From Geotalea daltonii FRC-32 (GTDB lineage: Bacteria; Desulfobacterota; Desulfuromonadia; Geobacterales; Geobacteraceae), in NCBI RefSeq assembly GCF_000022265.1, contig NC_011979.1, positions 2,910,001 to 2,942,000 on the forward strand: a stretch of DNA of 32,000 nucleotides. Direction: 5' to 3'. How positions within the stretch are numbered: the stretch's first letter is position 1; each line of letters starts with the position of its first letter. Position numbers and translations under genes: made by a program. This document shows positions 2,772-31,187 of the stretch, one piece after another. The notes beneath the pieces were generated by a model. That model saw nothing but the letters and a program-made list of their open reading frames with translations, ran no database searches and had not been told where the DNA came from.

Positions 2772-5189
2772 ATGCATCCCTTAAAACACCTGCTTGTCTT
2801 GATATTTGGTCTGGCTATTCTTTCCGGCTGTGCCGGCGGTCGCTCCGCGTTCAGCAATGCTGAAAAGCTGGAGCGGGAAGGGCGTCTTGACGAAGCCGTC
2901 CTCAAATATGGAGAAGTCGCAGGCGCCAACCCGGATGTGGTGGAATATCGGTCCAGGTTTCTTTCGGTAAGTGCAGCAGCCGCCCAAAAGCATCTGAAGA
3001 AGGGGGAGGAGTTCCTGGCGGCCCAAAATTATGACGATGCCCTGCGCGAATTCCAAACCGCCTATGCCCTGGACCCTTCCCTTCAGCAGGCCCAGCAGCA
3101 GAGCGAGCTGGTGATCCGCTTGAGGAATTCCCACGTTTATCAGAAAGAAGGGTCGGAGTTCGAGAAAAACCGGAAGCCCAAAGAGGCGATTCGCTCGTAT
3201 CAGAAAGCATTGGAGTTCAACAGTAACAACACCGAGGCCAGGAACGCGGTTGATCGCCTGGTAAAAAGTAAAAAGCCGAAGATGGACGGGTACGAACTGA
3301 ATCTCAAATCTAACAAGCCCCTTACCCTCAAATTCAAGGATGCCAAGATCAAAGAGGTTTTCAACATTATCTCGCAACTTTCCGGTATCAATTTCGTCTT
3401 TGACGAAGGGGTGAAAGACCAGAATTTTTCCATCTATCTGGAAAACGCAACCTTTCAGCAGGCTCTCGACATTATCTGTGGCGTGAACAAGCTGGGTAAG
3501 AAAGTCCTCAATGAAAACACCATCATCGTTTATACCAAAAGCCCGGAAAAAACGAAGCAGTATGAAGAGTTGATCGTCCAGACCTTTTACCTCAACAAGC
3601 TTGACGCCAAAAAAGCGGTAAACCTGATCCGCACCATGCTGCAGGTGAAGAAAATTTACGTCAACGAAGAGATGAACGCCCTGGTCATCCGGGATACCCC
3701 TGAAGTCATCGAAGTGGCGCAGAAAATTCTCGATGCCAATGACGTGCCCGATGCGGAAGTAGTGCTTGAAGTTGAGGTGCTCGAATTCACCAAGAGCAAC
3801 GCTGAGAGCTTCGGTCTGGCTCTGAGCAGGTACGCGGTTTCCACTGCCGCTGCCAAGGTGGGCGCTTCCACATTTTTGTCCGATGTGCTGGTACAGCCCA
3901 CATCCACATCATCTACGACCACCTCGACTACCACCAGCAGCGACAATCTGCTCAGCCTTTTTCGCTGGCGCGGGTTTAATGGCTTTCTGACGGTGCCCAA
4001 TGCCACCTTCAATTTCGGCAAGACCCTGTCCAACAGCGAAACCTTGGCCAATCCCAAGATACGGGTAAAGAACCGGGAGAAGGCCAAGTTCAACGTGGGC
4101 ACCCGTGTGCCGATTACCACCACATCCACCAATGGCACGAGCATCGGTGTCAACGTCAACGTTCAGTACGTGGATGTGGGGGTCAAGGTGAACGCCGAAC
4201 CGACCATCCAGCTGAATAACGAGGTTTCCATCAAACTGAGCCTGGAGGTCAGCACCATCCTCAGCAAGGATAAGATCGGCGATGCCAGTTCGCTTACCAC
4301 CGTCGTCACCATCGGTACCCGCAACCTGGATACCGTCTTGAGCTTGAAGGATGGAGAAACCAGCATTATTGGTGGACTGATCCAGGATGATAAAAGCAAG
4401 AGCAAACAGAAAGTCATGGTTCTGGGCGACATCCCTATCATAGGACCTTTGCTTTCAAATAACGACAATACTAACAGGAAATCAGAGCTGGTGCTGGCAA
4501 TCACCCCCCGGGTGGTTCGGTCTGTTACCGTGCCGGAAGGGGATGCTGCCGGATTCTGGTCGGGCAGGGAAGATGAACCATCCCTGTCCAAGCCCTATTC
4601 ATCCTTTGTTCAGGAGCAGGAACTTGTTCCTGCCGTGCAAACCACGCCGCTTCCACCGGCCGAAGCACCGATAAAACCCGAAACCGAGCCGAAGGCTGCC
4701 CCTTCTGTCCAGCCTCCACCACCAGTTCCCGCACAACCAGAGCCCCCCGCTGCTGCCGAACCGCAATCGCCGGCTCCCAAGGTTACTGTCAATCTGGCTG
4801 CCCCTGCTTCGGTAGAGCTTAATAGTCAGTTCAGCGTCGAGATCAAGGTTGCCAATGCGACCAATCTTATCAACGCGCCCTTCACCTTTGCCTATGATCC
4901 GATCTTTCTTGAACTGATCAGGCTAACAGAGGGCCCCTTCATGAAGAAAGACGGTAAGCCTACCACATTCCGCCCAACCATAGACAAAGTAACCGGGCAG
5001 GTGGCAATCAGCCTTTCCCGACCGGTGGAGGTAGGGGGGGTAACCGGCAGCGGGACACTGGCAATCGCCACCTTCAGGGCAAAAAATCAGGGGCCGGCAA
5101 GTATGGGATTTCTTGATACCAATCTGACTGCCGTCGGCGGGAAGCCTGTAGATGCCCTCTCTTATAGTGCCGTCGTTGAAGTGAAATAG
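2772..5189 (+). CDS. Secretin (PilQ/GspD family) lipoprotein with N-terminal TPR repeats and a C-terminal cohesin-like module
   Basis: 805 aa. Signal peptide with lipobox LSGC. TPR-like repeats (aa ~30-170). N0/secretin_N-type domains (LTLKFKDAKIKEVFNIISQLSGINFVFDEG..., FYLNKLDAKKAVNLIRTML...NALVIRDTPEVIEVAQKIL). Canonical secretin C-domain (GETSIIGGLIQD..VLGDIPIIGPLL..SELVLAITPRVV). A Pro-rich linker and a ~135-aa cohesin-like beta module follow. Confidence 0.9.
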   Translation: MHPLKHLLVLIFGLAILSGCAGGRSAFSNAEKLEREGRLDEAVLKYGEVAGANPDVVEYRSRFLSVSAAAAQKHLKKGEEFLAAQNYDDALREFQTAYALDPSLQQAQQQSELVIRLRNSHVYQKEGSEFEKNRKPKEAIRSYQKALEFNSNNTEARNAVDRLVKSKKPKMDGYELNLKSNKPLTLKFKDAKIKEVFNIISQLSGINFVFDEGVKDQNFSIYLENATFQQALDIICGVNKLGKKVLNENTIIVYTKSPEKTKQYEELIVQTFYLNKLDAKKAVNLIRTMLQVKKIYVNEEMNALVIRDTPEVIEVAQKILDANDVPDAEVVLEVEVLEFTKSNAESFGLALSRYAVSTAAAKVGASTFLSDVLVQPTSTSSTTTSTTTSSDNLLSLFRWRGFNGFLTVPNATFNFGKTLSNSETLANPKIRVKNREKAKFNVGTRVPITTTSTNGTSIGVNVNVQYVDVGVKVNAEPTIQLNNEVSIKLSLEVSTILSKDKIGDASSLTTVVTIGTRNLDTVLSLKDGETSIIGGLIQDDKSKSKQKVMVLGDIPIIGPLLSNNDNTNRKSELVLAITPRVVRSVTVPEGDAAGFWSGREDEPSLSKPYSSFVQEQELVPAVQTTPLPPAEAPIKPETEPKAAPSVQPPPPVPAQPEPPAAAEPQSPAPKVTVNLAAPASVELNSQFSVEIKVANATNLINAPFTFAYDPIFLELIRLTEGPFMKKDGKPTTFRPTIDKVTGQVAISLSRPVEVGGVTGSGTLAIATFRAKNQGPASMGFLDTNLTAVGGKPVDALSYSAVVEVK
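4626..4778 (+). other. Proline-rich linker inside the secretin gene
   Basis: Translates VPAVQTTPLPPAEAPIKPETEPKAAPSVQPPPPVPAQPEPPAAAEPQSPAP. This low-complexity P/A/E tract separates the secretin core from the terminal module. Confidence 0.8.
4779..5186 (+). other. Cohesin-like domain at the secretin C-terminus
   Basis: KVTVNLAAPASVELNSQFSVEIKVANATNLINAPFTFAYDPIFLELIRLTEGPF...GSGTLAIATFRAKNQGPASMGF... matches the cohesin pattern (beta strand, N-[AV]-x-x-[LI]-x-[GA]-x-x-F-x-[LIF]-x-YDP-x-x-L, later G-[ST]-G-x-[LI]-A-x-[IV]-x-F). The same pattern occurs in ORF 11355-12674. Called by eye, not by HMM. Confidence 0.6.
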
Positions 5190-10390: not shown

Positions 10391-10438
10391 AGGAGGCATT
10401 ACAACATTCCAGTTAAAATACGATTGAAAGGAGTAATT

Positions 10439-11302
10439 ATGCGAAAAAAAGCACTAGTTTTTCTCCTTCTGGGTGTCTTTCTGGCTGTTGTTCTTTCAGC
10501 TTGCGGTGGGGGTGGGGGCGATGCTTCCGCTCCTACCCCTACTCCCGCTCCAACCCCAAGTCCTAGCCCTAGTCCCAGCCCCAGTCCCAGTCCTAGTCCC
10601 AGTCCTAGTCCTAGTCCTAGTCCTAGCCCCGGTCCTGCTGTAACTGCTTCCAAAGGTATCGGCCTTGCGAACAATGCCGACACTATTACCATAACAACCA
10701 CCTTTACGGGAACTGTTCCGGCGGATGGTACAGTTGTCAATTTCTCGGTCACTCCTGCGACTGCAATACTGGGAAACACTACTGCAACTACGACTAACGG
10801 TGTTGCAACGACAACAGTCAAATCTGCAACGGCCGGAGCAGTTGTGATTACTGCTGTCTCTGGCGCCGCAACGGCTAACACTACTGTTAAATTTATAGCC
10901 CAACCGACCGCCATGGATGTTTTCATTGCTTTAAACCCAGCTGTAAGCGGGCTGGCAAGTCTGCAATTTTCTCTGGTCAACGGTTCAGGAGCAACTTTCA
11001 GCTCTGGTTCCGAGAGTGCCGTCAATGGGGCGACAGGGTCCCTTATTGTTGCCAACCAGGCTTCCGGCAGTGACACCACGGTGATTGCCCTGATCAGCGC
11101 CGCCGGTTTCAATACCGGGACTACGCCCATCATCAAACTTTCCTATGGTATAACTTCGGGTCTGCCGGGCATGCAGGTGAGTTCTTCAGGGATTTCGGCG
11201 ACCAGGCTGGCCAATCCAGCTGATCCGTTGAGTGGTGTGCCCTTGGCTCTTACTCCGCAGAATTTCGTAGTCACCATCAAATATAACACAGACACGTTTT
11301 GA
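10439..11302 (+). CDS. Surface lipoprotein with (S/T/A-P) linker and bacterial Ig-like (Big_1-type) domain
   Basis: The ORF opens at TTG 10424, but ATG 10439 follows RBS AAAGGAG. MRKKALVFLLLGVFLAVVLSAC is a lipoprotein signal with lipobox. Then G-rich, TPTPAPTP(SP)12 linker. The Big_1-like segment is ADTITITTTFTGTVPADGTVVNFSV...TTNGVATTTVKSATAGAVVITAV. The C-terminal ~150 aa beta-rich region has unknown fold. Confidence 0.7.
   Translation: MRKKALVFLLLGVFLAVVLSACGGGGGDASAPTPTPAPTPSPSPSPSPSPSPSPSPSPSPSPSPGPAVTASKGIGLANNADTITITTTFTGTVPADGTVVNFSVTPATAILGNTTATTTNGVATTTVKSATAGAVVITAVSGAATANTTVKFIAQPTAMDVFIALNPAVSGLASLQFSLVNGSGATFSSGSESAVNGATGSLIVANQASGSDTTVIALISAAGFNTGTTPIIKLSYGITSGLPGMQVSSSGISATRLANPADPLSGVPLALTPQNFVVTIKYNTDTF
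10559..10630 (+). repeat. Hexanucleotide AGY-CCN microsatellite-like tract encoding (Ser-Pro)12
   Basis: 12 consecutive AGT/AGC + CCT/CCC codon pairs, read directly, preceded by TPTPAPTP. This tract explains the artefactual (GL)n ORFs on the opposite strand. Confidence 0.95.
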
Positions 11303-11354: not shown

Positions 11355-12674
11355 ATGAAATTATTTGATTCTGTAGTGATGTTTATGCTTAGTCTCTTTT
11401 TCGCTGCATCCGCTTTCGCCGCTGCAAATGTGTCAATGGTCTCAGATGACGGCAAATCATGGACTCTGCAGGCAAGCGATTTCGAAAACATTAGCGGAAT
11501 TGATCTCACCATCACCTACGACCCTTCCATCCTCAGCAATCCCAATGTCACGCAGGGCTCCTTTGTTGCCGGCTCAATGATGGTTCCTAATGCTGATGTC
11601 GCAGGAGTTGTTCGTATCGGGATTGTTACAGCCAAGCCCCTGACCGGCTCCGGGCCGATAGCTACAGTGACTTTTCAACGTAAGGCCAGCGGTTCAGCCA
11701 AGCTCAAGCTTGCAGCGAAAATTGTCAACAAAGATCTTGCTCCTACACCGGTAATTCCCGTGAGCCCCACGGATTCAGAGGCAGAAGCTACCGATACTTC
11801 TTCAGGCAGAAAAGCCAACCAGCAAGTACAGACGCCTCAACAATCTGGAAATCAGTCACAATCTAACGGCTCATCCACAGTTGTAGTTGGAGGTCATGTC
11901 ACCCTGCCGTCCGACATGACAGCGTCAACCGAGGAGAAAAAAGCTCAGCAGACAACGCCCGAATACAGGGAAGAGCAGCAACGCGAAGCACCTTCCGTTC
12001 ACAGACCAACGTCTGCACCTGAGGCTAAGCAGGAGGCGGAGGCAAAAGCATCTGCGCTCAAGATCGAGCCACCAGAGAATATCCTTGGTCGGTTCAACGG
12101 ATACAAGGGGGAGATGACAAGCAAGGCTTTGATCCAGTTGTTCGCCGTGGATGAAAAGGCCACAGTTAAACAGGACCCGCCCATACTTTTGGCTGATGGC
12201 AAGGCAAATCTCAAATTAACCGTACGAAACCCGCAAGGTAAACATGCTCCCAATTTTGCACTGAAGAAGGCCAAGCTGGTGAGTCTGAAGGTAGCTTCCA
12301 ACAACACCTGGGTTGTGGTGGCCAAGCCTGAAAAAGGGGTATATGACGCATCCATAACCATGCTTGTTGATGATACCGCAGTTGAAATGCCCTTGACTGT
12401 TGCGCCAAAGGTAGACATTGACCTTGACAAATCCGGGAAGATCGATGACAACGACTTCAAGATCTTCCTTAAGGACCGCGGCAGCAACAAAGCGCCTAAA
12501 CATGACCTGGATAAGGATGGTCGCCGTAACCATATTGATGATTATATATTTACCGCCAACTTTCTCGTGCTCAATCAAATAGCAAACGAAAAACCAATGG
12601 CAGGCAAGGTTCCGGTGGAAACCAAACAGAAGTCTGATACTGTCCGGGGGAGCAGTAAACCCCAGGCAAAATAA
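11355..12674 (+). CDS. Secreted protein with N-terminal cohesin-like module, low-complexity linker, Ig-like middle domain and C-terminal dockerin-like module
   Basis: 439 aa. Signal peptide (..FFAASAFA|AANV). Cohesin-like aa ~24-125. Q/S/E-rich linker. Beta-rich domain aa ~240-350. Two EF-hand-like Ca-binding repeats near the C-terminus. RBS AAGGAGAAG upstream. Confidence 0.7.
   Translation: MKLFDSVVMFMLSLFFAASAFAAANVSMVSDDGKSWTLQASDFENISGIDLTITYDPSILSNPNVTQGSFVAGSMMVPNADVAGVVRIGIVTAKPLTGSGPIATVTFQRKASGSAKLKLAAKIVNKDLAPTPVIPVSPTDSEAEATDTSSGRKANQQVQTPQQSGNQSQSNGSSTVVVGGHVTLPSDMTASTEEKKAQQTTPEYREEQQREAPSVHRPTSAPEAKQEAEAKASALKIEPPENILGRFNGYKGEMTSKALIQLFAVDEKATVKQDPPILLADGKANLKLTVRNPQGKHAPNFALKKAKLVSLKVASNNTWVVVAKPEKGVYDASITMLVDDTAVEMPLTVAPKVDIDLDKSGKIDDNDFKIFLKDRGSNKAPKHDLDKDGRRNHIDDYIFTANFLVLNQIANEKPMAGKVPVETKQKSDTVRGSSKPQAK
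11424..11729 (+). other. Cohesin-like module
   Basis: NVSMVSDDGKSWTLQASDFENISGIDLTITYDPSILSNPNVTQGSFV....GSGPIATVTFQRKASGSAKLKL shares the xxGxxLxxxYDPxxL and GSGxxAxxTF motifs with the secretin C-terminal module (4779-5186). Confidence 0.55.
12414..12575 (+). other. Dockerin-like module (duplicated Ca-binding loop-helix)
   Basis: DIDLDKSGKIDDNDFKIFL and HDLDKDGRRNHIDDYIFTANFLV form two DxDxDG/SG-type loops, each followed by an amphipathic helix. The spacing resembles type I dockerin repeats. Confidence 0.55.
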
Positions 12675-16096: not shown

Positions 16097-17167
16097 CTAG
16101 CTGGTATACATGAACTTGCGTTCCAGATCCATGGAATGTGACAGTCGTTTGGCATCTTCCAGCGTTATGAGATCCTGTTCATACATCTGCAACAGATGCT
16201 GATCCAGTGTCTGCATATGGTACTGGGTCTGTCCATTCTCAATGTGCTTTTCAATCTCATCGAGCCGCCCTTCGCGGATACAGGCCTGTATGGTCGTAGT
16301 GGAACGCATTATCTCAACCACAGGGAAAATGTTATCTCCTGTTTTGTCTTTGACAAGCCGTAACGAAACGGTAGCGACGAGGATGTCTGCCAATCGCTGG
16401 CGGATGATCTCCTGGGCATCGGGTGGGAAATGTCCGACAATTCGGTTTATGGTGGAAACTGCGCTCTGGGTGTGCAGGGTAGACAGGACCAAATGCCCGG
16501 TTTCTGCCGTTTTTATGCAGGCATCGATAGTCTCCTTGTCACGCATCTCTCCAACCATTATCACATCCGGATCCATTCTAAGGGCTGATTTGAGTGCAGA
16601 GTTAAAGCTATCCGTGTCAATCCCCACTTCTCTCTGAATGATGCAGCTTTTTTGTGAAGTAAAGAGAAATTCAATCGGATCTTCAATGGTAATGATATTG
16701 TGGTTGAAATTTTCATTTAGGAATCTCAACATCGAGGCAAGGGTGGTTGACTTTCCGTTACCGGTAGGGCCGGTGACCAGGATCAATCCATTGGGAGCAG
16801 TCGCTATTTCCGAAAGAACAGTCGGTAGGTGCAATTCCGAAAATGTGCCGATATTAGGCGGGATGACACGCATGACGACACCGAAATTGCCCCTCTGGCG
16901 GAATAAGCTAACCCTGAAACGACCGCCGCTGGATAAGGAGTATGATGCATCGAATTCACGCAAATCGGCGTTGAATTCACGACCATTATGCTCCATCACT
17001 GTTTTGGCGATAAAAAGGGTGTCATCTGCCGAAAGGTTGGGCATCTTAGCTCGGATCAGCTGCCCTCTTGCCCTGAAAAACGGGGGATTGTCCACTTCGA
17101 AATGGAGGTCGGATACCTTCTTCTGAAAGGCGATTTCTAATATCTGGTGTAAAGTTCTCGCGTCCAT
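16097..17167 (-). CDS. pilT: Type IV pilus retraction ATPase PilT family
   Basis: 356 aa. Walker A GPTGNGKSTT, Asp box/Walker B (DPDVIMVGEMRD), His box (GHLVLSTLHT), PilT-type C-terminal IQACIREGRLDEI (compare AIRNLIREGK). Confidence 0.9.
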   Translation of the reverse strand: MDARTLHQILEIAFQKKVSDLHFEVDNPPFFRARGQLIRAKMPNLSADDTLFIAKTVMEHNGREFNADLREFDASYSLSSGGRFRVSLFRQRGNFGVVMRVIPPNIGTFSELHLPTVLSEIATAPNGLILVTGPTGNGKSTTLASMLRFLNENFNHNIITIEDPIEFLFTSQKSCIIQREVGIDTDSFNSALKSALRMDPDVIMVGEMRDKETIDACIKTAETGHLVLSTLHTQSAVSTINRIVGHFPPDAQEIIRQRLADILVATVSLRLVKDKTGDNIFPVVEIMRSTTTIQACIREGRLDEIEKHIENGQTQYHMQTLDQHLLQMYEQDLITLEDAKRLSHSMDLERKFMYTS

Positions 17168-17205: not shown

Positions 17206-18963
17206 CTATTGAGCTTGTTTTTCAAGTTTTTTTCGCATCAGAATATTATCAAAAATAAGGCTTGCATGTTTTGACAGAGAGGCGATCATATCTGTCGGAG
17301 CCGGTGTTGCGGCCTTGGCGCCAAAATCGGCGTAGGTAAGGGCGATGACACGGCCAAAACTCACTATGGGCACGACCAGTACCCTTGTTTCGGCTGGTGG
17401 GCCGATTTCTTCGTATAGAGATATCAATGCCTCATCCTCACCATGTTCAAAGGATATCTTTAAGTCATCTATGGCTTTCTGGAAAACGGAGATGGGCGCA
17501 AGCGAAACTTTAAAACGCAATGGAGCCGTTGCCCCGGTGCTTTTGTCGGATCTTATGCCAATACCGCGTTCAGCTATCAATTCTCCGTTGGCAACAATAA
17601 AAGTTATCGATCGTTCAAAAATTTCCGAGATAAATTTAAGCAGGGCAAATGAGAGGTCAGGTATCTCCTGGGCGATTCCCAAATCATGTATGCACCTGTT
17701 AAAAGCATCAAGTGGGATATTTGCATCGGATGAAAAAGAATTTTTCTGCATGTAAGAGCGGAAGGACTCTGTGAAATTAATGCTTCCTTCTGCGAAACCG
17801 ACTTTGGATTTATTTATATCCGGTTTGGGGAATATGGTGCGAACACCATCTTTCAGAGCCGCCAAAGAGGAATTTATGTCACCTGACACCAGTTTTATCA
17901 CAGACAATGTCTTGTAAGCTGTAAGCTTCGAGTTTATGAGTCGTGAGTATTTCTCATCAGTTCCAAAACTATCTATTATCAGAACAGGTGAGGCCTTTTT
18001 GGCTAGAGTCTGATCGATGATAGGGTCAAGATCAGTTTCATTGTCGGTTGTAAAAACTGCCAATTCATCAGCCTTGCAGGCAGCTGACAACAGGTTCGTG
18101 ATCAGCCTGTCGCAGCTGAATATTATAACGACAGGTCCGGGGATTCGGGGCGAGCCTGGATCTTTTTTGGGTGCGTTTCCGCACAAATCAACCATGTATG
18201 AAACAAGCTTTTGTTGTTGGTCTGCCGGTACGTCAAGAAGTTCTTCCTTCAGTCTCTGGCGCAAGTCTTCAGCCGGATCGAAAAATTTTACCCCTGTAAA
18301 TACCTCAGGGATTTTTTTATCAAGGCTATCCAGATCATCCAGGCCAAGATCGCTTGCCGAGATCAGAGGAGCGTCGCTTTCACATTCAAGAAAACCGGGT
18401 TGTTCCGCATCACTCGTAACAAATGTAGGTTCATTCAACGTCCCGTCACGTTTTTTCTCATCGTAGATGCGGAGTGCGTCCATGAGAATGCTTTGGGTGT
18501 TAAGGTTCAGGGTTTCTTTCAGCGTATCGGGAAAATACCTATATTCGTCAGAAACTGTCAACTTGTCGATTTCCAGTTCAAATGTACCGGTGGTCCAAGT
18601 CAAAACATCGACGATAGTCATCTCTATCAACATCTCCAGCCCTTTGAAAGCTGTGTCCCTGTTGATCAGACCATTTTCTATCAGTGTGGCAATTAAAGGC
18701 TTGCGGTTGTTACCAGCATTCTTCTGTTCCTGCAGAGCGTTTTCCAACTGCGCGGCACTGATGGCATTCAGGTCCACCAGTATCTGGCCAACTTGTATGC
18801 TGTTGTTATGGTGATTTGCACTGACAATGTAGCCTTCATTGAAGACAATCTGACTCTGGCCCCGTTTGCTTTTCAGCCCAAGGGTGCCGGATTTCTTGGT
18901 AGAGTGAAGCAGTTGAATCAAATCGACAATGGGGAGATGTTCAAGATCGCCGACAAAGGACAT
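17206..18963 (-). CDS. DUF4388/PATAN-like N-terminal domain protein with T2SS-E_N-like segment, receiver-like central region and GAF-like C-terminus
   Basis: 585 aa. The N-terminus GDLEHLPIVDLIQLLHSTKKSGTLGLKSKRGQSQIVFNEGYIVSA matches the DUF4388 pattern. VGQILVDLNAISAAQLENALQEQK..KPLIATLIENGLINRD resembles the GspE N-terminal motif. PVVIIFSCDR...PVLIIDSFG is receiver-like. The C-terminus ..ITFIVANGELIAERGIG...VLVVPIVSFGRVIALTYADFG is GAF-like. It ends 38 nt upstream of pilT on the same strand. Confidence 0.6.
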   Translation of the reverse strand: MSFVGDLEHLPIVDLIQLLHSTKKSGTLGLKSKRGQSQIVFNEGYIVSANHHNNSIQVGQILVDLNAISAAQLENALQEQKNAGNNRKPLIATLIENGLINRDTAFKGLEMLIEMTIVDVLTWTTGTFELEIDKLTVSDEYRYFPDTLKETLNLNTQSILMDALRIYDEKKRDGTLNEPTFVTSDAEQPGFLECESDAPLISASDLGLDDLDSLDKKIPEVFTGVKFFDPAEDLRQRLKEELLDVPADQQQKLVSYMVDLCGNAPKKDPGSPRIPGPVVIIFSCDRLITNLLSAACKADELAVFTTDNETDLDPIIDQTLAKKASPVLIIDSFGTDEKYSRLINSKLTAYKTLSVIKLVSGDINSSLAALKDGVRTIFPKPDINKSKVGFAEGSINFTESFRSYMQKNSFSSDANIPLDAFNRCIHDLGIAQEIPDLSFALLKFISEIFERSITFIVANGELIAERGIGIRSDKSTGATAPLRFKVSLAPISVFQKAIDDLKISFEHGEDEALISLYEEIGPPAETRVLVVPIVSFGRVIALTYADFGAKAATPAPTDMIASLSKHASLIFDNILMRKKLEKQAQ

Positions 18964-26777: not shown

Positions 26778-27596
26778 ATGGCTTTTGATTATGATAAATA
26801 TATCCGTCCCGGCAAACTGCCGCATATCTGGTGCCCGGGCTGCGGCCACGGCATAATTATGAAAGGGCTGATCCGGGCCATAGATACTCTTGGCCTTGAA
26901 AAGAACAACACTGCTATCGTTTCAGGTATCGGTTGCGCTTCCCGGCTTCCCGGTTATTTGGATTTCTGTACGTTGCATACTGCCCATGGGCGTGCTGCAG
27001 CTTTCGCTACAGGCGTAAAAATGGCCAAACCAGAGATGAACGTCATAGTAGTCGGCGGTGATGGCGACGGTACTGCCATCGGCGGCAACCACTTCATCCA
27101 TGCCTGCCGTAGAAACATCGACATGACCTACATCATCATGAACAACAACATCTACGGCATGACCGGTGGTCAATTCTCTCCCTGTACGCCTACCGGCGCC
27201 AAGGCTTCCACAACTCCTTATGGAAACCCTGACCCTGCATTCGACATAGCCAAGCTTGCTATCGGCGCAGGTGCTACTTTTGTTGCCCGTGGCACTGCCT
27301 ACCATGCGACCCAGATCGACAAGCTCATTGCTGAAGCAGTTCAGCATAAAGGCTTCTCTGTCGTCGAAATCCTTGACGACTGTCCGACTACTTACGGTCG
27401 TCGTAACAAGTTCAAGTCCGTCATTGAAATGATGAACAGATTGAAGGACATCGCCGTTCCCATCAAAGCTGCCGAGAAAATGACCCCTGAGCAGCTCCAG
27501 GGCAAGATTCTTACCGGCGTGCTTTACAAGGAAGAAAAGCCGGAATACACAACCGAGTATGCAAAGGTTATCGATCGCGCCAAGGGCGGCAAGTAA
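26778..27596 (+). CDS. korB: 2-oxoglutarate:ferredoxin oxidoreductase beta subunit (TPP-binding)
   Basis: 272 aa. CPGCGHG Fe-S motif, TPP motif GDGDGTAIGGNH...NNNIYGMTGGQ. Confidence 0.85.
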   Translation: MAFDYDKYIRPGKLPHIWCPGCGHGIIMKGLIRAIDTLGLEKNNTAIVSGIGCASRLPGYLDFCTLHTAHGRAAAFATGVKMAKPEMNVIVVGGDGDGTAIGGNHFIHACRRNIDMTYIIMNNNIYGMTGGQFSPCTPTGAKASTTPYGNPDPAFDIAKLAIGAGATFVARGTAYHATQIDKLIAEAVQHKGFSVVEILDDCPTTYGRRNKFKSVIEMMNRLKDIAVPIKAAEKMTPEQLQGKILTGVLYKEEKPEYTTEYAKVIDRAKGGK

Positions 27597-27620: not shown

Positions 27621-28166
27621 ATGTCACAAAGATATGAAATCAGATTCTCCGGGGCAGGCGGACAGGGTTTGATCCTTGCCGGAGTTATCATGGCTGAAGC
27701 CGCCTCGATATATGATGGAAAGCAGGCTGTTCAGTCCCAGAGCTATGGCCCCGAGGCTCGCGGTGGTGCATCCAAGTCCGAGGTTATCGTTTCGGACTCC
27801 CTTATCGACTATCCCAAGGCCACTGTTGTTGATGCGCTTCTGGCACTGACACAGGAAGCCTGCGACAAGTATTCCCATGACCTTAAAGAAGGCGGTGTGC
27901 TGCTTATAGACTCCGACCTGGTTACGAGACAGCCCAAGGGCAACTTCAAGGTGGTTTCATTTCCCATCATCAATACGGCGAAGAATGACGTTGGCCGTGA
28001 GATCGTTGCCAACATAGTAGCGCTTGGCGCGATGGTGGCACTGACCGGGGTCGTCACCAAGGAAAGTGCAGAGAAGGCAGTTCTTGCCCGTGTTCCCGAG
28101 GCATTTGTGGACCTGAACAAGAAAGCTTTCCAGATGGGTTATGACAAGGCTATTGCCGCAAAATAA
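27621..28166 (+). CDS. korC: 2-oxoglutarate:ferredoxin oxidoreductase gamma subunit
   Basis: 181 aa. OFOR gamma pattern (IRFSGAGGQGLILAGVIMAEAA...SYGPEARGGASKSEVIVSD). The last 123 nt are part of the tandem duplication. Confidence 0.85.
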   Translation: MSQRYEIRFSGAGGQGLILAGVIMAEAASIYDGKQAVQSQSYGPEARGGASKSEVIVSDSLIDYPKATVVDALLALTQEACDKYSHDLKEGGVLLIDSDLVTRQPKGNFKVVSFPIINTAKNDVGREIVANIVALGAMVALTGVVTKESAEKAVLARVPEAFVDLNKKAFQMGYDKAIAAK

Positions 28167-28706
28167 TCCAGTTTTGTATCAGCTGAAAAAAAGCCCGATA
28201 TTGTCATCGGGCTTTTTTTTTATCTTGAAAGACATACAATGTAGGATGACAGAGATTTTTCAGTCTGGAACATGAACATCTATTAGTAGGAATACTTATG
28301 TCTGACAATCTTTGTGAAATGTCCTTACAGCAGACATTGTCTTTATTACACCTCACGGACCTCGCGTTGCGCGATATCTGCTGCAAAAGATTTACCCGCG
28401 ACACTCTTTACCAGGAAGTGTTGGGCAAAGTTCTAGGCGGGAAAGGCAGACGGGGGCCGGCCAGCATCTTTCTGGTTTTTCAGGATGCGAGCGGCGTTCT
28501 TCAACCCGGCCGTGTTTTTCACATGAAAGACGGTTCTTTGGTGGAGAGGTCTGATGAAATAGCTCTAGATCCGTTGTCCGGGTATGCTGTCAATCTGCTT
28601 GAAGCTCAGTCCCAGGAGGAAGTAGTTTTAGTCAACTGGGCGGACAGCTACGAGAGCATCGAAGACTTCCAGTCCTATTTCCATCCGGCAGTTAAAAATT
28701 TTATTT
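28044..28706. repeat. Tandem direct duplication, copy 1 (663 bp)
   Basis: Base-by-base visual comparison with 28707-29369 shows no difference, homopolymer runs included (A7, T9). Flanks diverge immediately (28043 g vs 28706 t; 28707 a vs 29370 c). Confidence 0.95.
28186..28221 (+). terminator. Rho-independent terminator after korC (copy 1)
   Basis: AAAAAAAGCCCGAT-ATTGTC-ATCGGGCTTTTTTTTT: 8-bp GC-rich stem flanked by A7 and T9, so potentially bidirectional. Confidence 0.85.
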
Positions 28707-28807
28707 ACCGGGGTCGTCACCAAGGAAAGTGCAGAGAAGGCAGTTCTTGCCCGTGTTCCCGAGGCATTTGTGGACCTGAACAAGAAAGCTTTCCAGATGG
28801 GTTATGA
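28298..28807 (+). pseudogene. Duplication-derived chimeric ORF: first 136 codons of the GAF-HD-GYP gene fused to the korC 3' fragment read out of frame
   Basis: 169-aa ORF. Residues 1-136 are identical to ORF 28961-30154. After junction 28706|28707 it reads YRGRHQGKCREGSSCPCSRGICGPEQESFPDGL*, an alternative frame of the korC tail. It keeps the native upstream region and RBS (AGGAA) and is followed by terminator copy 2. Confidence 0.6.
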
Positions 28808-28829
28808 CAAGGCTATTGCCGCAAAATAA
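28707..28829 (+). pseudogene. korC 3' fragment (last 40 codons + stop) without start, created by the duplication
   Basis: 123 nt identical to 28044-28166. No upstream korC sequence or start codon in this copy. Confidence 0.85.
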
Positions 28830-28848
28830 TCCAGTTTTGTATCAGCTG

Positions 28849-28884
28849 AAAAAAAGCCCGATATTGTCATCGGGCTTTTTTTTT
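28849..28884 (+). terminator. Rho-independent terminator (copy 2 of the korC terminator)
   Basis: Same hairpin and T9 as 28186-28221, shifted by 663 nt. Confidence 0.8.
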
Positions 28885-28960
28885 ATCTTGAAAGACATAC
28901 AATGTAGGATGACAGAGATTTTTCAGTCTGGAACATGAACATCTATTAGTAGGAATACTT

Positions 28961-30154
28961 ATGTCTGACAATCTTTGTGAAATGTCCTTACAGCAGACAT
29001 TGTCTTTATTACACCTCACGGACCTCGCGTTGCGCGATATCTGCTGCAAAAGATTTACCCGCGACACTCTTTACCAGGAAGTGTTGGGCAAAGTTCTAGG
29101 CGGGAAAGGCAGACGGGGGCCGGCCAGCATCTTTCTGGTTTTTCAGGATGCGAGCGGCGTTCTTCAACCCGGCCGTGTTTTTCACATGAAAGACGGTTCT
29201 TTGGTGGAGAGGTCTGATGAAATAGCTCTAGATCCGTTGTCCGGGTATGCTGTCAATCTGCTTGAAGCTCAGTCCCAGGAGGAAGTAGTTTTAGTCAACT
29301 GGGCGGACAGCTACGAGAGCATCGAAGACTTCCAGTCCTATTTCCATCCGGCAGTTAAAAATTTTATTTCTTCTCCAATTATCAACTTCATTATTTGCCG
29401 CATAAGCGGCGAGGTGCCGGGTGCCATTGTTGCTATCAACTACCCTGGAAAGGCGACTACTTACGACGCAGAGGTTCTCAAAAGCATGGCAGTGGTGATC
29501 GGCTCATTGCAGACCATATCGGATGAGGTACAGGAGACAGAGAAGGCATTCAGATACACAATAGAGGCCCTTGCCAGAGCCTGCGAAGCTGCCGAGGAAG
29601 ATACGGGGAAACATATCCAGAGGGTGAACCGGTATGCCGGTGCCCTTGCTGCCAACATGGGACTTCCCAACGATTTTGTGGAAACGGTTTCCTTTTCGGC
29701 GCAGATGCATGATGTGGGGAAAATCAAGATTCCGGCTTCCATTTTACTTAAAAATGGGCCTCTTGATGATGCGGAAACAGCGCTAATCCGCATGCACCCG
29801 GTCTATGGCCGGCAGATTTTAGGTGACTCGCCCAGGCTACAGGTGGCACGGGATATTGCCATTTCCCATCATGAAAACTGGGATGGCAGCGGTTATCCAA
29901 ATCGCCTTGCTGGCGAGAATATCCCGCTGGCTGGAAGAATCGTCAAGTTAGCCGATGTTTATGATGCCCTTAGATCAAACAGAAGCTACAAGACCCCTCT
30001 CACCCATCAGGCCACCCTGTCCATTTTCCGCAATGGTGATGAAAGGATCAACCCGGAGAAACACTTTGATCCTGTGCTTCTCGGGGTATTTTTCAAGATC
30101 GAGCATATCTTTGACAAGATTTATGAGAGCTTCAACGTTAATCCTGCCAATTGA
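28961..30154 (+). CDS. GAF-like sensor / HD-GYP domain cyclic-di-GMP phosphodiesterase
   Basis: 397 aa. The N-terminal ~190 aa have a GAF-like pattern (..ASIFLVFQDASGVLQPGRVFHMKDG...GAIVAINYPGKATTYDAEVLKSMAVVIGSLQTI). HD-GYP signatures are HIQRVNRYA, QMHDVGKIKIP and HHENWDGSGYP. Confidence 0.85.
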   Translation: MSDNLCEMSLQQTLSLLHLTDLALRDICCKRFTRDTLYQEVLGKVLGGKGRRGPASIFLVFQDASGVLQPGRVFHMKDGSLVERSDEIALDPLSGYAVNLLEAQSQEEVVLVNWADSYESIEDFQSYFHPAVKNFISSPIINFIICRISGEVPGAIVAINYPGKATTYDAEVLKSMAVVIGSLQTISDEVQETEKAFRYTIEALARACEAAEEDTGKHIQRVNRYAGALAANMGLPNDFVETVSFSAQMHDVGKIKIPASILLKNGPLDDAETALIRMHPVYGRQILGDSPRLQVARDIAISHHENWDGSGYPNRLAGENIPLAGRIVKLADVYDALRSNRSYKTPLTHQATLSIFRNGDERINPEKHFDPVLLGVFFKIEHIFDKIYESFNVNPAN

Positions 30155-30233: not shown

Positions 30234-31187
30234 ATGTTTCTCTTGCCAAAGGGAAATCCATTGTATGAAAACGTTGCTGCTGCCAAAGTCAAGCTGCCGG
30301 AAATACTGGACAAGCTGAAAAACGGCGGTTTCACTGGATATCTCAACTTTGTTTTTCCATCTTCAAACATGATTCTTTTCTTTGAGGGGGGAAAACTTAT
30401 CAGCACCATGTGTGAGCAGGGCAATACCAGATTGTCGGGCTTTGAGGCCTTAGCGGCATTGTGCAGTCATATTTTCGCTGGGGGCGGCAGCCTTTCCGTC
30501 TACAGGCTCTCCCGTGACCTGGTTATGGGACTGCACGCACTGTTGCACGGCGAAGTTCTATACAAAGGGCAGGAACTGAAACTGATCGATGTGAAGGGGC
30601 TCCTTGAAAAGATGAGGGCGCAACAGCTCAACGGCTGCCTGAGAATTTACACCGAGGACAGGTCGGCTCTCATTTTTTACAAGGAGGGGGCACCACTGGG
30701 TTTTTTCCATGATGGATCCAATGATATAGAGACCTCCGCCACCGAATCACAGAAGATTGCCGGGTTACCGGGGGCAAAGGTAGACATTCTTTCCACAAAA
30801 AGCGCAGACGAGTTGATGCTCCTTGACCTACTCGAAATGGTCAATATCGATAAAATATGGGAATCGACCAAAATCCGCCATGAGGCTCAGCTGCAGCAGC
30901 AAAACAAGGAAGCCCGTGAGCGGGACAACAGGCAACAGGATGCGAAACTGCTGGAACTGGAGGAAGATCTGAAAGAAGTCGCCGCAGCCTACCTGGGCAA
31001 AATGGGGCGGACTCTGATCGATAAGGAACTTGCGGACTGCGGCGGCAGAAGGGGCCTGCTTGATGCAGATCAGGTGGCAAAGTTCCTGGCAGGGGTGGAA
31101 AAATCATCGAAGCTGCTTACCAGTCTTTCCAAGTTGAAGGAGATGACCGATCTTTTGCGGAAGGAAATCAGCCGTCTTTCCATTTAA
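30234..31187 (+). CDS. Hypothetical protein with two tandem DUF4388/PATAN-like modules and a C-terminal coiled coil
   Basis: 317 aa. RBS GAAGGAG. LPEILDKLKNGGFTGYLNFVFPSSNMILFFEGGKLIS and IDVKGLLEKMRAQQLNGCLRIYTEDRSALIFYKEGAPLGF both follow the pattern of the N-terminus of the 17206-18963 product (LxxLLxxLxxxxxxGxLxxxxxxxxxxIxFxxGxxxx). Q/E/K-rich coiled coil at aa ~215-250. Family assignment is by eye only. Confidence 0.45.
   Translation: MFLLPKGNPLYENVAAAKVKLPEILDKLKNGGFTGYLNFVFPSSNMILFFEGGKLISTMCEQGNTRLSGFEALAALCSHIFAGGGSLSVYRLSRDLVMGLHALLHGEVLYKGQELKLIDVKGLLEKMRAQQLNGCLRIYTEDRSALIFYKEGAPLGFFHDGSNDIETSATESQKIAGLPGAKVDILSTKSADELMLLDLLEMVNIDKIWESTKIRHEAQLQQQNKEARERDNRQQDAKLLELEEDLKEVAAAYLGKMGRTLIDKELADCGGRRGLLDADQVAKFLAGVEKSSKLLTSLSKLKEMTDLLRKEISRLSI

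Follow-up and report, generated by a model that had tools for sequence, protein, structure and literature searches.

A perfect 663-bp tandem duplication between korC and an HD-GYP gene of Geotalea daltonii FRC-32, probably recent, strain-specific and joined without homology

Formation of duplications by illegitimate recombination between sites that share only 0-5 bp of identity was reported in Acinetobacter baylyi, and a high rate of loss together with a fitness cost was described for large duplications, of tens to hundreds of kilobases (PMC9997567). Here we describe a far smaller head-to-tail duplication in the reference genome of an iron-reducing bacterium, Geotalea daltonii FRC-32 (formerly assigned to Geobacter). 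It lies in a stretch of 32,000 nucleotides (NC_011979.1, positions 2,910,001 to 2,942,000; hereafter the window), where a 663-bp unit that reaches from the 3' end of korC, a 2-oxoglutarate:ferredoxin oxidoreductase gene, into the 5' part of a gene for an HD-GYP phosphodiesterase is present twice. The original prediction, made from the letters of the window, had noted the repeat and allowed for a very recent event, for a duplication held by selection or confined to a subpopulation, and for an artefact of assembly or construction; the evidence collected here favours a real, recent and derived event. Overall, we consider it likely that this is a real, evolutionarily recent and strain-specific tandem duplication, which arose by one illegitimate joining event and is near-neutral.

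On direct comparison, positions 28044-28706 and 28707-29369 (window coordinates throughout; Table 1) match over all 663 nt with 0 mismatches. Identity ends sharply, with an extension of 0 nt on either side of the repeat. The same pair, with 663 nt from start to start, was returned by a repeat finder, and in a comparison of the window with itself by BLAST it is the sole long direct repeat. The copies have the same orientation and are adjacent, with no spacer between them. An exact repeat of this length is far beyond chance, and no other perfect tandem repeat comparable to it was found by BLAST in 925 kb, made up of the window and 88 related loci. The perfect head-to-tail duplication claimed from the letters is thus borne out, mismatches between the copies having been looked for by alignment and not found.

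With one end of the unit inside korC and the other inside the gene that follows, neither flanking gene is disrupted. The unit consists of the final 123 nt of korC (28044-28166, 40 codons and the stop), the 131-nt intergenic region with the korC terminator inside it (28167-28297), and the 5'-terminal 409 nt of the HD-GYP gene (28298-28706, 136 codons and 1 nt); by the coordinates of the open reading frames (ORFs), the earlier arithmetic on these contents was exact. From left to right, the locus reads full korC, first terminator, first upstream region, codons 1-136 of the HD-GYP gene, joint, korC tail, second terminator, second upstream region, and full HD-GYP gene. The ORFs also agree with the earlier statement that nothing was lost, a full korC surviving in the first copy and a full HD-GYP gene in the second. 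The joint can be recognized by the diagnostic sequences AAAAATTTTATTTACCGGGGTCG and AAAAATTTTATTTACCGGGGTCGTC, and the flanks by GGTGGCACTGACCGGGGTC on the left and AATTTTATTTCTTCTCCAAT on the right.

The ancestral state of the locus is visible in its relatives, a comparison that the original prediction had proposed. The closest is a metagenome contig (L081; ENA ERZ27250632) with 8 mismatches to the window in 2110 nt (99.6 % identity). It spans korB and korC and runs into the HD-GYP gene, crossing the two breakpoints and carrying the unit only once. At the three sites within the unit where this contig differs from the window, both window copies share the same base, as expected for a young event. 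The locus is also single-copy in Geotalea sp. SG265 (88 % protein identity), whose sequence likewise aligns across the two breakpoints. More widely, among 48 Geobacteraceae loci there are 27 in which korC lies directly upstream of the HD-GYP gene, 49-878 nt away, and a BLAST search found no perfect tandem repeat in any of these 27. Because the metagenome contig, SG265 and the other korC/HD-GYP loci are all single-copy, the duplication is, as judged from these sequences, a derived state that is restricted to the FRC-32 lineage.

The joint itself carries no trace of homology between the partners. In the reconstructed ancestor, the longest word common to the two breakpoint regions (within 40 nt) has 7 nt and is out of register, and a word at least as long turned up in 42 of 500 shuffles (about 8 %); on this breakpoint comparison slipped misalignment at short direct repeats was rejected. 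Repeat finder and self-BLAST detected no insertion sequence (IS), rrn, repetitive extragenic palindrome (REP) or other long repeat at the unit ends, there are no inverted repeats at the boundaries, where the sole palindromes are the two terminator copies, and scans for Pfam and other protein domains found no transposase, IS or mobile-element gene in the window. An origin by IS or transposon was rejected, as neither a transposase ORF nor an inverted repeat at the boundaries is present. Both earlier observations, of no microhomology at the junction and no transposase or IS end nearby, therefore hold. A joint without microhomology, with no IS in its vicinity, points to homology-independent (illegitimate) recombination as the source of the duplication. 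One joining event between sister chromosomes, with 28706 on the first linked to 28044 on the second, would duplicate 663 bp. Topoisomerase action, end joining and template switching are all candidate routes.

The existence of the repeat in the cells, and not only in the assembly, had to be weighed with more care. Perfectly identical adjacent copies are also the mark of repeat mis-assembly in draft and finished genomes, and a second copy could have been added to a single-copy FRC-32 locus at the Sanger/454 finishing stage, for example by a chimeric clone or mis-joined reads. The identity of the copies even in the A7 and T9 runs and the single-copy state of all relatives would fit such an origin. 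However, in a finished genome such as that of FRC-32 (4,304,501 bp), single Sanger reads and clone-size checks can cope with a unit of 663 bp, and de Bruijn assemblers usually collapse repeats of this sort and do not invent them. In addition, two independent short-read assemblies, 100 % identical to the window, break where a duplicated locus should make them break. For k = 31, which we take to be the word length of the Logan contigs, the de Bruijn graph of an A-U-U-B arrangement, U being the unit, is expected to yield a U unitig that starts at the first base of the unit and a B unitig that starts 30 nt before the unit end. A 19.8-kb contig (L083, run SRR29904085) that is 100 % identical to the window starts at 29340, which equals 29370 - 30 (k-1). 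A second contig (L087, run SRR9436587) corresponds base for base to window positions 28707-29623 and starts exactly at the unit start. The latter was retrieved with the 40-aa partial product of a contig start predicted beforehand at 28044/28707, whereas the corresponding look-up with the 270-aa partial product of a contig starting at 29340 gave only L083, which had already been found. The chance of either coincidence of contig ends is about 1 in 1000. On the left side, contigs obtained by look-ups with korB (L084) and korA (L085, SRR29904085) end at 27644 and 27105, respectively, both short of the left breakpoint, where an end at 28073 was predicted. That two short-read assemblies break at the predicted branch points speaks, indirectly, against an assembly artefact; a finishing error is thus very unlikely, and the duplication very probably exists in FRC-32 DNA.

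Several observations weigh against our interpretation. No joint-spanning contig was found among Joint Genome Institute (JGI) metagenome contigs with a joint 38-mer, and the 169-aa product of the joint is absent from protein collections, both of which would fit a finishing artefact. The last 33 nt of the unit gave no match in the same metagenome contigs. A single-nucleotide polymorphism (SNP) in a co-occurring strain, whether at 28043, which is a third codon position, or at 29370, would give the same contig breaks. Coincidences of this type do occur, since the contig end at 29623 falls on the site of an unrelated SNP in L081. Run SRR29904085, moreover, appears to be a metagenome, because its contig numbers are very high and L085 ends at 27105, where L081 starts. 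Contig L087 continues unbroken past the unit end into what lies downstream, which requires the further assumption either that the joint was patchily covered or that the population was mixed. Finally, near-neutrality of the duplication is assumed.

A mixed population deserves attention in its own right. If the culture were a mix of one-copy and two-copy cells, from which the reference assembly took the duplicated allele, the k-mers of the joint would be rare, and it would be easier to see why L087 starts at the unit start yet passes through the unit end. On the other hand, L083 does break at the unit end, patchy coverage accounts for L087 equally well, and contigs cannot give allele frequencies. 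We regard such a mix as unlikely, and the joint is presumably carried by every cell.

The position 27105 itself lies inside the motif for thiamine pyrophosphate binding (GDG...NN) of korB, and the end of L085 there coincides with the start of L081 although the two come from different assemblers. A branching of the graph at a motif common to Geobacteraceae or to paralogous oxidoreductases is the likely reason for the break, and the shared end suggests that both samples are metagenomes.

The sole new product of the duplication is a 169-aa chimera, for which the ORF list places the stop at 28807. A Pfam search found no family in this ORF, and a homologue search retrieved only six distant N-terminal fragments, leaving the out-of-frame tail uncovered. 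In an AlphaFold 2 model of the intact protein, breakpoint residue 136 precedes two strands (142-148, 154-159) and a helix (167-185); this helix closes the GAF-like N-terminal domain and leads into the catalytic half. The chimera would thus be without about a quarter of the sensor domain and without the whole catalytic domain; judging from the model, it is unlikely to fold, and the truncated gene copy is probably useless.

The upstream elements that were duplicated together with the gene fragment would leave the expression of the full HD-GYP gene much as it was. The terminator (A7-GCCCGAT-ATTGTC-ATCGGGC-T9) folds with -23 kcal/mol (z = -5.4), and its hairpin is conserved, with stem changes, in an alignment of the intergenic regions of nine related Geobacteraceae loci. 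Because of this conservation the korC terminator is probably functional. The same alignment of nine regions contains no clear shared promoter motif, in contrast to the terminator, and a consensus scan found no sigma-70 match in the intergenic region. A riboswitch or other RNA element in the duplicated region was considered and rejected, as Rfam gave no match in the window. Transcripts initiated in the first upstream copy would stop at the second terminator, whereas the full HD-GYP gene would be expressed from the second upstream copy, much as before, and read-through from the kor operon would meet two terminators in series.

Table 1. Coordinates of the duplicated unit and of the genes and elements at its borders (window positions)
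Feature	Position	Strand	Remarks
Intact korC, 2-oxoglutarate:ferredoxin oxidoreductase gamma subunit, 181 aa	27621..28166	+	ORF; Pfam POR; = ACM21018
Duplication unit, copy 1	28044..28706	+	663 nt, identical to 28707-29369
Intrinsic terminator of korC, copy 1 (probably functional)	28186..28219	+	Palindrome; A7, 7-bp GC-rich stem, 6-nt loop, T9
Chimeric ORF, 169 aa	28298..28807	+	HD-GYP residues 1-136 and 33 out-of-frame residues from the korC remnant
Joint TTTATTT/ACCGGGG	28700..28713	.	Between 28706 and 28707; microhomology 0 nt
Duplication unit, copy 2	28707..29369	+	663 nt; Logan contig L087 starts exactly at its first base
korC 3' remnant, 40 codons and stop, non-functional	28707..28829	+	Without a start codon of its own; repeat comparison, ORFs
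Second copy of the intergenic region, 131 nt	28830..28960	+	Presumed promoter and 5' untranslated region of the HD-GYP gene; promoter inferred only
Terminator, copy 2	28849..28882	+	Downstream of the truncated ORF, upstream of the full HD-GYP gene
Intact GAF-like/HD-GYP phosphodiesterase gene, 397 aa	28961..30154	+	Pfam HD_5, E = 6e-32

The identity of the two genes that flank the joint is well defined on the korC side. Its product matches Pfam family POR (PF01558, E = 1.2e-37), and korC is the last gene of the operon korD-korA-korB-korC, with the genes for the ferredoxin, alpha and beta subunits upstream; this context, together with an exact match to an annotated gamma subunit, backs the name given to it in the original prediction. 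The same prediction had labelled the downstream gene GAF-HD-GYP. The second half of this label is supported by a match to HD_5 (PF13487) in the C-terminal half of the 397-aa protein, with 111 bits against a cut-off of 27.2, by the presence of the HDVGK (HD) and GSGYP (GYP) motifs in the translation, and by its Protein Data Bank relatives PmGH (4mcw, E = 8e-52), PA4781 (4r8z) and V-cGAP3 (5z7c). On the basis of these matches the product belongs to the HD-GYP phosphodiesterases. More than 3000 homologues were found, and the best 120 listed are 382-418 aa long.

The GAF half of the label stands on the predicted fold. A Pfam search assigned no family to residues 1-200 and gave no match to a GAF profile. 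The AlphaFold 2 model, built with 35 homologues, has a mean predicted local distance difference test score (pLDDT) of 71.6, with about 64-88 over residues 41-180, and in Foldseek its N-terminal alpha/beta domain matches many GAF domains, such as 2zmf and 3o5y (template modelling scores, TM, of 0.64 and 0.63), with E-values of only 1e-3 to 1e-2. The best match of the whole chain is PmGH (E = 7e-16 over 393 columns). Thus "GAF-like/HD-GYP" is a reasonable label, its first part describing a predicted fold. The N-terminal sensor domain (28961-29560) is conserved in thousands of homologues although it belongs to no Pfam family, and its fold is predicted to be similar to that of the N-terminal domain of PmGH.

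A different rearrangement of the same locus was observed in another metagenome. In a contig that is 98 % identical to the window (L082, Logan SRR22387814_1356825, positions 1060-1135), position 28232 is joined directly to position 29993, so that the sequence just past the korC terminator runs into the final ~160 nt of the HD-GYP gene, and this relative has neither the upstream region nor some 90 % of the gene. No microhomology is seen at this joint. The contig could represent a true strain-level deletion or a chimera.

Persistence of the duplication in FRC-32 can be understood from its size. Recombination between repeats of 0.66 kb is orders of magnitude rarer than between large ones, and a repeat of this length would be lost only slowly by RecA-dependent recombination, at an estimated 1e-5 to 1e-4 or so per generation, while the strain would have passed through single-colony bottlenecks. 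The original prediction that RecA-proficient cells collapse such repeats quickly was overstated, as the high loss rates were described for duplications tens to hundreds of kilobases long (PMC9997567). The step from zero divergence to a very recent event was likewise too strong: at ordinary mutation rates a first difference between copies of 663 nt would take on the order of a million generations to appear, and their identity means only that the duplication is younger than roughly that age. Neither the persistence of the repeat nor its perfect identity needs selection. The net effect is most likely near-neutral, and the simplest account is a near-neutral duplication that was fixed by a strain-isolation bottleneck.

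Selection could nevertheless keep the duplication, through a dominant-negative GAF-like fragment that interferes with the full-length HD-GYP enzyme, for instance in non-productive dimers, through insulation of the HD-GYP gene from the highly expressed kor operon by the additional terminator, or through tuning of cyclic-dinucleotide signalling by copy number, which unequal crossing-over could raise or lower. The duplicate holds the entire region upstream of the gene, so that the fragment is probably expressed, the signature of the duplication was seen in two separate sequencing runs, and the HD-GYP locus is structurally variable in close relatives, as in the 98 % identical contig L082. On the opposite side, a fragment that is deprived of two core strands and the closing helix, and that carries a nonsense tail of 33 residues, is unlikely by the model to fold, a similar arrangement occurs in none of the relatives compared, and a gene deletion in L082 suggests a dispensable gene rather than a finely tuned one. 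We therefore hold maintenance by selection to be quite unlikely. The bolder proposal that the korC/HD-GYP boundary is a hotspot for retuning cyclic-dinucleotide signalling in Geotalea, where the fragment or the doubled terminator alters the activity or dose of the HD-GYP phosphodiesterase and the duplication is kept by selection, seems highly improbable. If it were true, FRC-32 with a partial duplication and its 98 % relative with a deletion would be two outcomes at this boundary, and the copy number could shift by unequal crossing-over.

The assignment of the window to FRC-32 and the annotation of the locus are consistent with the duplicated structure. Seven window proteins (icd, mdh, korA, korB, korC, a PATAN/DUF4388 protein and a membrane protein) are letter-identical to FRC-32 proteins within ACM21013-ACM21022. 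The korC product is ACM21018 and the PATAN protein ACM21021, which leaves two numbers, ACM21019 and ACM21020, for the two ORFs between them, as would fit a record that annotates the chimeric ORF as well as the full HD-GYP gene. In protein collections no exact match was on record for the 397-aa protein, its Met8 variant or the 169-aa chimera.

Apart from icd, mdh and korDABC, the window carries a pilMNO-secretin group, ftsX/M23/S41 genes, and genes for aconitase B, a PilT-like ATPase and aspS. Two DUF4388/PATAN proteins are encoded in it. One of them (17206-18963, minus strand) adjoins the PilT-like ATPase (16097-17167, minus strand); the other (30234-31187, plus strand) comes immediately after the HD-GYP gene, with the gene for a conserved 243-aa membrane protein behind it, and these three genes (HD-GYP, PATAN and membrane protein) are conserved as a group in a subset of Geobacteraceae loci. 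The pilus secretin (2772-5189, plus strand) has N-terminal tetratricopeptide (TPR) repeats and a C-terminal cohesin domain, and a second cohesin-domain protein is encoded 6 kb downstream of it (11355-12674, plus strand). Another repeat of the window is the hexanucleotide AGTCCT x 11 at 10531-10635, inside an ORF at 10424-11302 (plus strand), where it encodes a (Ser-Pro)n linker just behind a lipoprotein-type signal peptide in a protein with a weak Big_1 match; hexanucleotide repeats of this kind are liable to change in length.

The duplication is an ordinary kind of recent mutation in a public reference genome. No description of it was found in the literature searched (daltonii with tandem duplication or with HD-GYP, and the run accessions). 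For users of the FRC-32 reference the practical consequence is that the ORF that separates korC from the HD-GYP gene is to be read as a by-product of duplication and not as an independent GAF-domain gene. Short reads over 28044-29369 will map ambiguously, and short-read assemblies will break or collapse there. At the same time, the locus offers a clean natural case of a small duplication with a joint without homology and a known ancestral allele, and it may serve as a marker of the FRC-32 lineage or as a gauge of repeat stability in Geobacteraceae. A new biological question would arise only if the fragment turned out to affect cyclic-dinucleotide signalling.

Two known systems can be set beside this locus. 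The first, PmGH of Persephonella marina, a cyclic di-GMP (c-di-GMP) phosphodiesterase, is the best sequence match of the downstream gene product (over profile positions 165-384) and shares with it the layout of an N-terminal domain and an HD-GYP domain, but the identity of the two proteins is only about 27 %. This resemblance concerns the predicted enzyme of the partly duplicated gene and not the duplication; both c-di-GMP and 3'3'-cyclic GMP-AMP (3'3'-cGAMP) are candidate substrates in Geotalea.

The second comprises the short-junction duplications of the A. baylyi cat amplification system and of Salmonella (Reams, Neidle, Roth; PMC9997567), which share with the FRC-32 duplication the head-to-tail copies, one novel joint and identity of 0-5 bp at that joint. 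As in FRC-32, no IS, rrn or REP element lies at the ends, and RecA-dependent expansion or collapse is possible once the repeat has formed. The units in A. baylyi, however, are 12-290 kb long, compared with 0.66 kb in FRC-32, and the A. baylyi duplications were selected in experiment, whereas the one described here comes from a reference genome. The FRC-32 unit, finally, amplifies no complete gene and is thus without an obvious gene-dosage benefit, in contrast to the A. baylyi system.

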